Source of the DNA: Escherichia coli | GTDB taxonomy: Bacteria; Pseudomonadota; Gammaproteobacteria; Enterobacterales; Enterobacteriaceae | NCBI RefSeq assembly: GCF_016903815.1 | Contig: NZ_CP069973.1 | Reading direction: 5' to 3' (one strand) | DNA length: 64,000 nucleotides | Shown: positions 52,888-55,418 of the stretch, piece by piece | Layout: each line of letters starts with the position of its first letter | How positions within the stretch are numbered: position 1 is the stretch's first letter | The notes under the pieces: generated by a model | Told to the model about the DNA's origin: nothing | The model's input: only the letters and a program-made list of their open reading frames with translations | The model's database searches: none | Position numbers and translations under genes: made by a program

Positions 52888-53588
52888 CAGTCAATCAGCC
52901 CATGTAATCTAAGTGCTGTTTCAAGCGCCAGAATACGCTGCCGCGCCTGCTCCAAACCTGTAGCGATAGCTGCGACTTCGGATTGTGTGTACGTAGTGCC
53001 GACCGTGTATGACTGGTTAGCGTTGAATGAGCCAAGAAGTGGTGTGCCTGTGGCCGCCGTCCATCCGGTCTGCCTTGCTCCAACGACCTGAATTCCATCA
53101 ACTGAATATGATGTTTTTACATCCAGCGGTGACGCAAGAGACTGCGATTCTGTTACGGTTTTCGATACGTAATCACTCTTAATGCCAGAGACATCGTTTT
53201 CTACGTCATCCAGTCTTTGGTCAACAGTGACCAGATGCGCCTGAATATCGATAACCTCATCCAGCAAGTAATCAACATCGCTACGCAGTACGACTATCTT
53301 CCCTTCGGCAGTTGTTAACCTGACCTCAAGTAGATTTATCGCTTTTGTGTTTGCGGTGATTCTTGCGTCGTGATCAGCCAGTTCGACGTCCTGTTCATCG
53401 TTTTTTACCTGAGCATCGTAAGCGCCCTGACCAGCCTGATTTGCCTTCCCGGCAATTGCGCCAACATCAGCACCCTGATTTATGACATACAGCAGGTAAG
53501 ACTGGCTGAATATATTGCGTGGAAGGATTGATGTATCGAGCCGCGTCGCCTGCACAATAACAGGGGTGTTGAGATTCGAATCAGCCAT
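52887..53588 (-). CDS. Tail needle protein (P22 gp26-like)
   Basis: 233-aa ORF; N-terminus [36 protein letters not shown]...[31 protein letters not shown] and C-terminus ...[18 protein letters not shown] match P22 gp26 as recalled. Confidence 0.88.
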
Positions 53589-53974
53589 TACTCAATCCTC
53601 TGCCTTGCAAACTCTCCAAAATTTTCTGCTCTTGCCATCATTGATGCTGAGATAGCTTCGTCCAGGTCATCGAAGCATCCAACGTGAACCTGTTTTTTAT
53701 TTTTCTTGAAAGAAACAGTCCACTTGCAGAGATTTTTGTGCCAACAGACACCAGGATATCCTGACTTATTATTTCTTTGAATATTCCTGTTCATCCCATT
53801 CTGGGATCTATTTGCCAATCTTAAATTTGAAAATCTGTTATCCGTTCTGTCTCCGTTAATATGATCTATTAAGCAATTTGCAGGTTTTCCTGTCATATAA
53901 AACCAAGCAAGCCTATGCGCTAAGTATCTCTTACCACAGACCATTATCCTTAAATAACCAGTGCACATGGTTCC
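53588..53974 (-). pseudogene. HNH endonuclease gene, C-terminal part (gene split by IS2)
   Basis: Encodes ...CTGYLRIMVCGKRYLAHRLAWFYMTGKPANCLIDHINGDRTDNRFSNLRLANRSQN... (HNH motif); the reading frame continues across the IS2 insertion into 55311..55418. Confidence 0.8.
53970..53974. repeat. IS2 target-site duplication (GTTCC), proximal copy
   Basis: 5-bp GTTCC directly abutting the IS2 end at 53975, identical to 55306-55310. Confidence 0.85.
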
Positions 53975-53985
53975 TGGATTTGCCC

Positions 53986-54891
53986 CTATATTTCCAGACA
54001 TCTGTTATCACTTAACCCATTACAAGCCCGCTGCCGCAGATATTCCCGTGGCGAGCGATAACCCAGCGCACTATGCGGATGCCATTCGTTATAATGCTCG
54101 AACGCCTCTGCAAGGTTCTTTGCTGCCGTTAACCCGTCTGGTTTGGGCATGATACTGATGTAGTCACGCTTTATCGTTTTCACGAAGCTCTCTGCTATTC
54201 CGTTACTCTCCGGACTCCGCACCGCCGTGTTCTTCGGTTCAAGTCCCAACATCCGGGCGAACTGGCGTGTTTCATTAGCCCGGTAGCATGAACCATTATC
54301 CGTCAGCCACTCCACTGGAGACGACGGAAGATCGTTGCCGAAGCGGCGTTCCACCGCTCCCAGCATGACGTCCTGTACTGTTTCACTGTTGAAGCCGCCG
54401 GTAGTGACCGCCCAGTGCAGTGCCTCACGATCACAGCAGTCCAGCGCGAACGTGACACGCAGTCTCTCTCCGTTATCACAGCAGAACTCGAACCCGTCAG
54501 AGCACCATCGCTGATTGCTTTCTTTCACGGCCACTCTGCCTGTATGTGCCCGTTTCGATGGCGGTACAGCAGGTTTTCGCTCAAGCAACAGCGCATTCTG
54601 GCGCATGATCCGGTAAACACGTTTGGCATTGATCGCAGGCATACCATCAAGTTCTGCCTGTCTGCGAAGCAGCGCCCATACCCGACGATAACCATACGTG
54701 GGCAGCTCTCCGATAACATGGTGTATACGGAGAAGCACATCCGTATCATCAGTGTGACGACTGCGGCGGCCATCCATCCAGTCATCGGTTCGTCTGAGAA
54801 TGACGTGCAACTGCGCACGCGACACCCGGAGACAACGGCTGACTAAGCTTACTCCCCATCCCCGGGCAATAAGGGCGCGTGCGCTATCCAC
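53986..54891 (-). CDS. insD: IS2 transposase OrfB (InsD, DDE integrase domain)
   Basis: 301-aa ORF starting [23 protein letters not shown] (GTG start) with DDE transposase domain. Confidence 0.9.
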
Positions 54892-55259
54892 TTTTTTGCC
54901 CGTCCATATTCAACGGCTTCTTTGAGGAGTTCATTTTCCATCGTTTTCTTGCCGAGCAGGCGCTGGAGTTCTTTAATCTGCTTCATGGCAGCAGCAAGTT
55001 CAGAGGCAGGAACAACCTGTTCTCCGGCGGCGACAGCAGTAAGACTTCCTTCCTGGTATTGCTTACGCCAGAGAAATAACTGGCTGGCTGCTACACCATG
55101 TTGCCGGGCAACGAGGGAGACCGTCATCCCCGGTTCAAAGCTCTGCTGAACAATTGCGATCTTTTCCTGTGTGGTACGCCGTCTGCGTTTCTCCGGCCCT
55201 AAGACATCAATCATCTGTTCTCCAATGACTAGTCTAAAAACTAGTATTAAGACTATCAC
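54849..55259 (-). CDS. insC: IS2 transposase OrfA (InsC, HTH)
   Basis: ORF ...[41 protein letters not shown]... with GTG start; overlaps insD in the -1 frame with an A6G slippery site at 54892-54898. Confidence 0.9.
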
Positions 55260-55305
55260 TTATTTAAGTGATATTGGTTGTCTGGAGATTCAGGGGGCCA
55301 GTCTA

Positions 55306-55310
55306 GTTCC
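55306..55310. repeat. IS2 target-site duplication (GTTCC), distal copy
   Basis: 5-bp GTTCC directly abutting the IS2 end at 55305. Confidence 0.85.
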
Positions 55311-55418
55311 CGCTTCATCACCAACGGTGACGCTCGCTGTATTTGATATTTTTCGGGTAAAAACCCCGGTTTCTGGGTCATATGATAAATGACGCTTCAA
55401 CTCTTCATGTGAAATCAT
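55311..55418 (-). pseudogene. HNH endonuclease gene, N-terminal fragment (36 codons) separated by IS2
   Basis: Minus-strand ATG at 55416-55418, 2 nt after the gp10 stop, reads [36 protein letters not shown] and continues in frame through one TSD copy into the ORF at 53588..53974. Confidence 0.75.

Follow-up and report, generated by a model that had tools for sequence, protein, structure and literature searches.

A probable free-standing HNH/AP2 homing endonuclease gene at the gp10/gp26 junction of a P22-like prophage, split by IS2

The window analysed here, 64,000 nucleotides of the Escherichia coli contig NZ_CP069973.1, includes part of the late operon of a P22-like prophage, in which all genes at the gp10/gp26 locus are on the minus strand. 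Upstream is gp10 (55421..56839), the gene of the 472-aa packaged-DNA stabilization, or head closure, protein, known from the list of open reading frames and from PGAP (as 'packaged DNA stabilization protein gp10') and 93-95% identical at the nucleotide level to gene 10 of HK620 and CUS-3; downstream is gp26 (52887..53588), the gene of a 233-aa tail needle of the P22/HK620 type, as judged from the reading frames and phage comparisons. An earlier note on this DNA had named precisely these two neighbours. Between them lie two pieces of an HNH endonuclease gene, namely, a 5' fragment with codons 1-36 (55311..55418, minus strand), defined by the reading frames and the restored join, and a 3' fragment with codons 39-164 and the stop (53588..53969, minus strand), defined by Pfam limits and conserved residues. 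The two pieces are separated by a copy of IS2.

This IS2 copy (53975..55305, minus strand; 1331 bp) is co-oriented with the phage late operon and was recognised by NCBIfam, by PGAP and by its identity to other IS2 copies. Its ends, TGGATTTGCCCC... and ...GGGGGCCAGTCTA, are canonical, the termini TGGATTTGCCCC… and TAGACTGGCCCC… forming imperfect inverted repeats, and it is flanked by a direct repeat of the target, GTTCC, one copy of which adjoins the left, transposase-proximal end (55306..55310) and the second the opposite end (53970..53974). Within the element, insC/orfA (about 54849-55214) and insD/orfB (53986-54891), both on the minus strand, are joined by a programmed frameshift; the NCBIfam models for TnpA (NF006928, 275.8 bits against a cut-off of 229) and TnpB (NF006918, 727.6 bits against 597) are both matched, and PGAP labels the product 'IS3-like element IS2 family transposase, programmed frameshift'. 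Thousands of IS2 copies that are 99+% identical to this one are found by megablast in E. coli. Thus, the length, the 5-bp target duplication, the orfA/orfB frameshift and the high identity are all typical of IS2 (IS3 family), and only the target, a probable homing endonuclease gene in the late operon of a prophage, sets this copy apart from others.

When IS2 and one GTTCC copy are removed, so that 55418..55311 is joined to 53974..53588, the result is an open reading frame of 495 nt that encodes 164 amino acids with no frameshift and contains an HNH motif, exactly as the earlier note had proposed, including the protein that it quoted. Could such a frame be a coincidence, or an artefact of assembly, with IS2 merely sitting in an intergenic spacer? 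This reading is already refuted: the restored frame corresponds to intact annotated genes (WP_021529423.1) that 13 further, independent complete E. coli genomes have between gp10 and gp26, with 99.6-100% identity (100% over 495 nt in six of them and 99.6-99.8% in the seven further ones), and in three IMG/VR prophages; it contains two significant Pfam domains and has a confident predicted fold; and two independently assembled genomes share the same IS2 junction. The gene in the prophage record ON470594 is likewise 100% identical to the restored sequence. The query in the E. coli survey was the restored gene alone; a megablast query that contains IS2 matches thousands of IS2 copies.

The similarity of the restored product to the HNH family, on which the first reading of the sequence hinged, is strong: Pfam HNH_3 (PF13392) matches residues 53-97 over the full model (1-46 of 46) with an i-Evalue of 7.6e-16, PHROG 99, 'HNH endonuclease', is matched at 4.2e-70, and a C-terminal AP2 DNA-binding domain (PF00847) is found at 2e-4. 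The HNH_3 domain is wholly within the 3' fragment (about 53792-53926), with D73-H74 at 53861-53866, N86 at 53825-53827 and N95 at 53798-53800, and the AP2 domain follows in the same fragment (about 53624-53764). Of the catalytic-type positions of the beta-beta-alpha-metal motif (the catalytic His and the Asn/His that bind metal), D73, H74, N86 and N98 do not vary among 43 homologues and N95 hardly does, and all of these residues are intact in the restored protein. Residues 1-38 contain L7, Y13, P15, T17, G18, F20, G33, A36 and G37, which are conserved in the family. The AF2 model of the 164-aa protein (pLDDT 92) has as its closest fold the homing endonuclease I-HmuI (PDB 1U3E; 22% identity), with the DH of which H74 is aligned; a phmmer search of the PDB sequences gave marginal matches only, with E values of 0.004 for the AP2 part and 0.19 for I-HmuI. 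In the NCBIfam search, IS2 alone was named, and no family was found for the HNH protein, the HNH protein of phage HZ41 (see below), gp10 or gp26. Judging from sequence and model, the restored product would have an I-HmuI-like sheet at its N-terminus, followed by the HNH motif and, at the C-terminus, by the AP2 domain, and would presumably be an active nuclease.

The ends of the insertion are informative. In an empty junction, such as that of HK620 (…GGCTGCCAGATAAGGATTGAGTAATGGCTGATTCG…), the stop codon of gp10 and the start codon of gp26 overlap (TAATG). In the window, the left end of the cassette (55419..55438, minus strand), delimited by alignment of the loci, consists of a recoded gp10 terminus, TCTATTAGGCTGGAGTAA (SIRLE*), and a 2-nt spacer, so that the HNH start codon lies 2 nt past the new gp10 stop; a GGAG placed 5 nt before this ATG is a putative Shine-Dalgarno sequence of the HNH gene. 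The SIRLE 18-mer is present in all HNH-carrying loci; in the 79 loci that show the TAATG overlap, gp10 ends instead in QIRIE*, encoded by CAGATAAGGAT(T/C)GAGTAA. At the right end, the last four codons and the stop of the HNH frame (53588..53599, minus strand; AGGATTGAGTAA), compared with the gp10 ends of empty sites, turn out to be the same as the gp10 terminus of empty-site phages, and the TAATG overlap with gp26 is retained; even the ATT/ATC polymorphism of the empty-site terminus recurs in two HNH-carrying loci (position 488). Hence, a cassette of some 500 nt would have entered within the last gp10 codons, supplying a substitute gp10 C-terminus (SIRLE*) together with the GGAG ribosome-binding site, and, because the original gp10 terminus (…RIE*) forms its own end, gp26 stays coupled through TAATG; such an arrangement would keep the host operon working.

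Most relatives lack the gene. It is absent from P22, HK620, CUS-3, Sf6 and others, about 97% of relatives having no gene at the junction, and in a tblastn survey the junction query spanned 666 nt in P22, where gp10 and gp26 are contiguous, as opposed to 1159 nt in an HNH carrier, in agreement with the earlier note, according to which P22 has no gene between 10 and 26. Among 5426 complete E. coli genomes, 922 have gp10 and 15 have the HNH gene (15/922, about 1.6%). Of the 80 IMG/VR loci with the closest gp10, three carry it; in 76 the junction is empty and the TAATG overlap is in place, and the last one (L083), likewise without an HNH gene, shows a gap of 3 nt. Among 60 of 185 phage records, sampled for spread, any insert at the junction is limited to two, ON470594 with this gene and HZ41 with a different HNH gene. 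Wherever the gene occurs (15 of 15 E. coli genomes, the three IMG/VR loci and ON470594), it occupies the same junction, and all intact copies found reside in prophages or predicted prophages. ON470594 (vB_EcoP-683R2) was considered as evidence of a viable phage with the gene and dropped, being a PHASTER-predicted prophage and not a virion isolate. A distant P22-like contig has a 78%-identical orthologue at the same junction, its gp10 and gp26 being 71% and 46% identical at the amino acid level, and, between these two lineages, the nuclease gene (80% nucleotide identity) is better conserved than gp10 (66%). The distant orthologue suggests an older association of the gene with this site.

The signature of mobility is seen in the flanks. 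Across 11 loci with the gene, a single SNP is found in the block that runs from -26 to +487 relative to the ATG (about 510 nt), and the sequence diversifies immediately outside it: the flanks that begin at -27 and +488 show 5-8 haplotypes per adjacent 50-nt window, with a mean identity of 0.89-0.98 towards gp10 and of 0.70-0.87 towards gp26. The carriers include phages with P22-type and with knob-type needles, their gp4 and capsid alleles vary, and empty loci share the flank haplotypes of carriers. An invariant cassette in flanks that split at once and are common to empty loci marks a site-specific mobile element; accordingly, the claim of the earlier note that the gene invaded the structural operon is supported by its sporadic presence at one junction in differing backgrounds. 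As the flanks begin to differ no more than about 30 nt away from the cassette, co-conversion tracts would have to be very short, and ordinary mosaic recombination over time could also produce tracts this short. An efficient drive element would be expected at a frequency above the roughly 1.6% seen here.

Taken together, these data make it quite probable that the locus harbours a free-standing homing endonuclease gene that spread by homing and was later split by IS2, the homing step being deduced from the population patterns; the earlier note had likewise read it as a homing-type endonuclease that invaded the operon before IS2 inactivated it. The gene would be transcribed as part of the late operon; when a relative with an empty site is present in the same cell, the enzyme would nick or cut its gp10/gp26 junction, repair off the carrier genome would copy the cassette into the empty site, and the recoded 18 nt together with the split junction would shield carriers from cleavage.

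Two other functional interpretations have to be weighed against homing. The gene could be an accessory 'moron' that spreads solely by ordinary homologous recombination and whose nuclease serves a purpose other than self-copying, for example, late in infection, degradation or exclusion of the DNA of the host or of competing phages. The virion modules of P22-like phages are strongly mosaic, at the gp10/gp26 boundary a conserved gene meets one that is highly variable, the flanks diversify from within about 30 nt of the cassette, and carriers are infrequent, all of which such an accessory gene would readily accommodate. It would, however, leave unaccounted for the confinement of the cassette to exactly one site, the recoded copy of the target gene's end that it carries, the occurrence at the same junction of a second, unrelated HNH gene that also comes with a recoded gp10 end (about 320 nt), the domain architecture of a recognised homing endonuclease family, and the greater conservation of the nuclease gene, compared to its neighbours, between distant lineages. 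The single site, the recoded ends, the architecture and the higher conservation are as nuclease-driven gene conversion predicts, and we consider the accessory-gene interpretation unlikely.

It seems far less probable still that the HNH protein has a function in the phage life cycle, such as that of a virion-assembly factor or of the terminase-associated HNH proteins of HK97-like cos phages, so that IS2 would have knocked out a needed gene. The gene does lie inside an essential late operon, in the same orientation and with translational linkage to it; yet the junction is empty in about 97-98% of relatives, the well-studied viable phages P22, HK620, Sf6 and CUS-3 among them, the domains place the protein in the HNH_3+AP2 family and not in the terminase-associated HNH type, and P22-like phages package their DNA by headful pac cleavage. 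The terminase-associated HNH protein of cos phages, for which a conserved place beside terminase or portal genes throughout the phage group would be expected, was rejected as an identity for this gene, given its location between gp10 and gp26 and its absence from the great majority of relatives.

Comparison with known systems places the probable homing endonuclease in a familiar context. Free-standing seg and mob genes of T-even phages rely on flanking-sequence polymorphism for the protection of the carrier genome. Like them, the gene described here occupies an intergenic or gene-end site between essential genes, shows presence/absence polymorphism among close relatives and has carrier and empty alleles that differ in the bases that adjoin the insertion; unlike them, it belongs to a temperate host, would be expressed from the late operon and has a co-converted tract of only about 20 nt. 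The seg nucleases are of the GIY-YIG family, in contrast to the HNH gene considered here, and the mob HNH genes have zinc-finger DNA-binding domains where the window protein has AP2 (PMC10448857). The HNH+AP2 combination is a recognised homing endonuclease family, with related 'IPA-HNH' genes in the Vibrio phage ICP1, and such genes are typically found beside or within genes that are essential or structural, and at the borders of genetic exchange (PMC10448857). The two domains occur in the same order in the family members from phages, cyanobacteria and protists (PF13392 + PF00847, PHROG 99), thousands of homologues in phage genomes being commonly annotated as HNH homing endonucleases; the closest phage homologues outside the junction lineage are at most 48% identical, and, compared to the wider family, the window lineage keeps to a single junction in P22-like phages. 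I-HmuI of the Bacillus phage SPO1, which nicks one strand, is intron-encoded, whereas the window protein is free-standing, and the C-terminal DNA-binding modules of I-HmuI are helical, of the HTH type, in place of which the window protein has AP2.

The IS2 insertion is recent and secondary, as follows from the existence of near-twin prophages that lack IS2 (one with 2 mismatches in 6495 nt, the other with 2 in 5765 nt; E. coli 15.TR.026_OXA, NZ_CP032145, is a host of such a twin) and from the confinement of the split allele to just two genomes, those of the Houston clinical isolates 2779 and 5283; the window is identical to NZ_CP103521.1, one of the two. The sequence of events in the earlier note, with IS2 arriving after the gene, is thereby upheld. 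A host IS2 would have transposed into codon 38 during the prophage state, in the ancestry of strains 2779 and 5283, so that a conserved module at the N-terminus is cut off from the catalytic domain and from AP2. As it stands, the 5' fragment runs on into IS2 to give a 42-aa frame (55290-55418), and the 3' fragment is read as part of a 137-aa artefactual fusion (53588..54001, minus strand; reading-frame list and PGAP) that starts at an ATG inside the right inverted repeat of IS2 and continues, after 11 residues, with HNH residues 39-164. No Shine-Dalgarno-like sequence precedes this ATG by inspection. A scan of 53400-55600 for promoters and terminators found none on the minus strand, sites being no more numerous than in shuffled sequences, a result that does not bear on the polarity of IS2. 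The insertion has almost certainly cost the enzyme its activity, complete loss being likely but not proven inasmuch as the fusion frame keeps the HNH and AP2 domains. Overlength for headful packaging was considered and would present no clear problem, the prophage measuring about 39.2 kb with IS2 (intS to torI), compared to 38.3 kb for HK620 and 39.0 kb for Sf6.

RefSeq annotates the fusion as an intact 'HNH endonuclease' (WP_204638456.1), and GenBank ON470594 labels the intact gene 'endolysin'; both labels are wrong, and the locus is properly called an HNH/AP2 homing endonuclease pseudogene disrupted by IS2. Homing endonuclease genes and IS2 are both textbook types of element, so current understanding is unchanged. 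The locus offers a clean, datable nesting in three layers, with an insertion sequence in a probable homing endonuclease gene in a prophage of a bacterial chromosome, and, empty, occupied and disrupted alleles all being available in sequenced strains, the proposed homing site (the last gp10 codons and the gp26 start) is directly testable.

This gene is not alone at the ends of gp10. A different, NUMOD4-HNH gene occupies the same gp10 3' junction in other phages, such as HZ41, and a third HNH gene is found at the gp4/gp10 junction, with a leftover gp10 5' fragment. The earlier note had named a conserved gene of another kind at this place in related phages as grounds against its reading; the other occupant, although unrelated, is one more sporadic HNH gene of the homing type and not a conserved gene, which leaves that reading standing. 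The gp10 ends emerge as a recurrent landing site of such genes in Lederbergviruses, which fits the published idea that nuclease genes mark the boundaries of genetic exchange in phages (PMC10448857). A bolder proposal, which we regard as possible but rather doubtful, is that both ends of gene 10 in P22-like phages are a contested hotspot at which double-strand breaks made by at least three unrelated HNH genes set the sharp mosaic boundary between the conserved gp10 and the much-exchanged needle gene; if so, these genes would drive the exchange of needle and knob types between phages. Each HNH gene would, in such a hotspot, have its own replacement gp10 end (18 nt for the gene described here, about 320 nt for the second, and the third at gp4/gp10). 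A literature search for homing endonuclease genes at the gp10/gp26 junction of P22-like phages found none, although an earlier description may exist; the HNH genes in the literature on these phages sit elsewhere, for instance, gene 31 of epsilon34 in the early-left operon.

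The host element is a P22-like (Lederbergvirus-type) prophage of about 39.2 kb, counting IS2. On the minus strand, which is the coding strand for every gene of the region, gp10 (55421-56839; 472 aa) comes first in transcription order and is followed, after a 2-nt spacer, by the ATG (at 55418) of an HNH endonuclease ORF that runs for 38 codons before it meets IS2. The latter (53975-55305, minus strand) is exactly 1331 bp long, ends in the canonical imperfect terminal repeats and lies between direct GTTCC duplicates at 53970-53974 and 55306-55310; its orfA and orfB, oriented as the phage late operon, exceed the curated cut-offs of the IS2-specific NCBIfam models. 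This is a canonical IS2. Downstream of it, still on the minus strand, the remainder of the HNH ORF continues to a TAA at 53588-53590 that overlaps, as TAATG, the start of the tail needle gene gp26 (52887-53588, minus strand; 233 aa). When IS2 and one GTTCC copy are removed in silico, an in-frame ORF of 495 nt results, and its 164 residues are those quoted in the earlier note; hence, the reading of an HNH gene between gp10 and the tail needle, split by IS2 and made continuous by this removal, is confirmed exactly.

Is the restored gene what it seems to be? The Pfam HNH_3 match is full-length (7.6e-16), AP2 is matched at 2e-4, and PHROGs assigns the protein to phrog_99, 'HNH endonuclease' (4e-70). 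The AlphaFold2 model, with 43 homologues as input, is confident (pLDDT 92, pTM 0.80), and the AP2 half was found independently by Foldseek. In the family alignment of the 43 homologues, D73, H74, N86 and N98 are invariant and N95 nearly so, with all five intact in the restored protein. The HNH motif previously noticed is thus substantiated by the domain matches and the intact catalytic-type residues: the restored gene is real, and its product is, by domains and fold, an HNH/AP2 endonuclease. An N-terminal HNH domain followed by a C-terminal AP2 domain marks a recognised class of homing endonucleases of phages, cyanobacteria and protists (PMC10448857; also a 2026 preprint). In its checkable features the restored protein belongs both with the HNH_3/I-HmuI-like nucleases and with the HNH+AP2 homing endonuclease family, and it is predicted to work like them. 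RefSeq already lists the same protein, generically named (WP_021529423.1); a literature search that stopped short of the main reviews on P22-like prophages yielded no published account of it or of homing endonuclease genes (HEGs) at the gp10/gp26 junction.

This junction is empty in most relatives. In HK620, vB_EcoP-611R6, CUS-3, IME10, Sf6 and others, no gene lies between gp10 and gp26, the stop of the one overlapping the start of the other as TAATG. A tblastn survey with the gp10 C-terminus/gp26 N-terminus as query, in which 60 records were sampled evenly from 185 matches, found the junction contiguous, or the gp10 part of the query alone matched, in 58 of the 60, the exceptions being ON470594 (prophage record vB_EcoP-683R2; +497 nt) and phage HZ41 (+560 nt). 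Among the 80 IMG/VR loci with the closest gp10, the HNH gene is present in three; the others show the -1 overlap (76) or a 3-nt gap (one). A gp10 homologue is present in 922 of 5426 complete E. coli genomes, the HNH gene in 15 (13 intact, at 99.6-100% identity to the restored gene and with WP_021529423.1 as the protein, and two split by IS2), and in all 15 it adjoins a tail-needle gene. These surveys bear out both the statement in the earlier note that P22, where the junction is contiguous, has no gene between 10 and 26 and the view of the HNH gene as an invader of the structural operon.

Alignment of the junctions indicates how the invader is fitted in. In the 79 loci with the TAATG overlap, gp10 ends …GGCTGC CAG ATA AGG AT(T/C) GAG TAA (QIRIE*), with GGCGCT in place of GGCTGC in some; in all occupied loci it ends …GGCTGC TCT ATT AGG CTG GAG TAA (SIRLE*), followed by TA and the HNH ATG, and the HNH ORF itself ends …CAG AGG ATT GAG TAA TGG, that is, with the original gp10 terminus and its overlap with the gp26 start. 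Thus, the cassette, a net insertion of 497 nt, carries a recoded substitute for the last gp10 codons and uses what was the gp10 terminus to close its own ORF. With the substitute comes a GGAG as well, 5 nt ahead of the HNH start codon. In two carriers, the matching site of the HNH end (position 488) shows the ATT/ATC polymorphism seen in the empty-site terminus, which is consistent with the 3' terminal stretch belonging to the host phage. A far more distant P22-like contig (gp10 71%, gp26 46% aa identity) contains a 78%-identical orthologue in the same layout (gp10 end CSIRVE*, HNH end KRIE*, TAATG overlap), and between the two lineages the nuclease gene is more similar (80% nt identity) than gp10 (66%). 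The IMG/VR locus with the 3-nt gap (L083, 2703718832_000007), where the gap replaces the overlap at an empty junction, has a gp10 end, …CAAATTCGTCTGGAGTAA (QIRLE*), intermediate between the two types of terminus; it may be what HEG loss left behind, or belong to an allele lineage of its own.

Does the cassette move? We aligned 11 occupied loci with 1.5 kb on each side. Besides the window without IS2, these were ON470594, three prophages from IMG/VR and six E. coli genomes, whose sources include gulls, humans, sewage and a pig slaughterhouse. Counted from the HNH ATG, the block from -26 to +487 contains only one SNP; directly beyond this block, 5-8 haplotypes are seen per 50-nt window, and mean pairwise identity is about 0.89-0.98 in the gp10 flank and 0.70-0.87 in the gp26 flank. 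Carriers have either P22-type (233 aa) or knob-type (317 aa) needles, their gp4 and capsid alleles differ, and each of their gp26 5' haplotypes also occurs in empty loci. This is how an element that is site-specific and has been spreading recently looks at the sequence level: invariant itself, always at one exact position, and set in backgrounds that are diverse and recombined. Since the flanks could also be shuffled by ordinary mosaic recombination, endonuclease-driven homing of the cassette is to be considered likely, not proven.

The IS2 insertion is a still younger layer. Window positions 33300-64000 are identical base for base to NZ_CP103521.1 (E. coli strain 2779, isolated from blood in Houston; window position p corresponds to record position 1590389 - p), and the split allele occurs in only two of the 5426 complete genomes, strains 2779 and 5283, both from Houston and almost equal in genome size. 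IS2-free near-twins of the window's prophage differ from it by 2 mismatches in 6495 nt (strain 15.TR.026_OXA) and 2 in 5765 nt (ON470594). Given these near-twins and the residence of IS2 in E. coli chromosomes (median of 4 matching places per genome), the insertion is a very recent event that took place in the prophage state. Residues 1-38, cut off by the break, include nine family-conserved positions and, in the AlphaFold2 model, form a helix, two strands and the start of a third strand of an N-terminal sheet that continues past the break; therefore, the later inactivation proposed in the earlier note is very likely. What remains is a 137-aa ORF (53588-54001) that keeps the HNH and AP2 domains; its ATG lies within the right inverted repeat of IS2, with no Shine-Dalgarno-like sequence ahead of it. 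As regards a possible polar effect of IS2 on gp26 and on the ejection and tailspike genes downstream, the needle gene still has AGGA 7 nt upstream of its start, the prophage encodes a Q-family antiterminator, and a promoter/terminator scan of 53400-55600 found no terminator-like site on the minus strand. RefSeq/PGAP labels the remnant as an intact 'HNH endonuclease' (WP_204638456.1), not a pseudogene, and GenBank labels the intact 164-aa gene of ON470594 as 'endolysin'; both are annotation errors. The locus is a neat, fully resolved case of selfish elements nested in one another; it calls for a small correction of annotation and offers a proposed homing site that can be tested; for specialists, it holds nothing surprising, the element types being already known.

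Other HNH genes surround gp10. A second, unrelated HEG at the same gp10/gp26 junction (181 aa, NUMOD4 + HNH, WP_021514124.1) lies at 1082-1627 of the locus from wastewater phage HZ41 (OM022251) and at 2501-3046 of three further loci (L099-L101); besides HZ41 it is present in 16 of the 5426 E. coli genomes, beside differing needle types. About 320 nt of gp10 3' end belong to its cassette; this stretch is strongly divergent, with 96-100% identity among carriers against 45-68% to empty-site gp10. The 18-nt recoded gp10 end of the window's cassette follows the same 'bring your own gene end' design on a smaller scale. Other P22-like prophages of E. coli have a third HNH gene (WP_021514403.1, 194 aa) between gp4 and gp10 (L093 2556-3282; L094 2557-3281), overlapping the gp10 start, with a 94-nt leftover gp10 5' (N-terminal) pseudogene fragment upstream; in L094 this HNH gene is decayed and split into two ORFs. 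Several gp10 megablast matches begin only at query nt 19, perhaps as a sign of this replacement of the 5' end. With these two genes, both ends of gene 10 are recurrent HEG landing sites, in agreement with the published generalisation that phage HEGs cluster beside essential genes and at boundaries of genetic exchange (PMC10448857). Distant homologues of the HNH protein (35-38% identity) occur upstream of gp10, on the opposite strand, in two P22-like IMG/VR loci with an empty junction (L062 376-726; L069 1825-2289), so that HNH genes occupy further positions of the virion module as well.

The prophage adjoins tRNA-Arg and yfdC, presumably where the cryptic K-12 prophage KplE1/CPS-53 also attaches; IntS marks one end (tRNA-Arg/yfdC/IntS, window about 42760-44155; L008 9461-10854) and the TorI-type excisionase the other, which lies outside the window. 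Between intS and the tailspike gene lie two oppositely oriented cargo genes (about 44270-45660; L008 10971-12359), annotated as a DUF1796 putative cysteine peptidase and a GDSL-type esterase/lipase, possibly lysogenic-conversion genes, e.g. for O-antigen modification. Just past the torI end there is a small integrative element (L102 1781-6183; NZ_CP103521.1 1503780-1508182, outside the window) with a tyrosine recombinase, a rolling-circle replication-associated protein, and MerR and HTH regulators.
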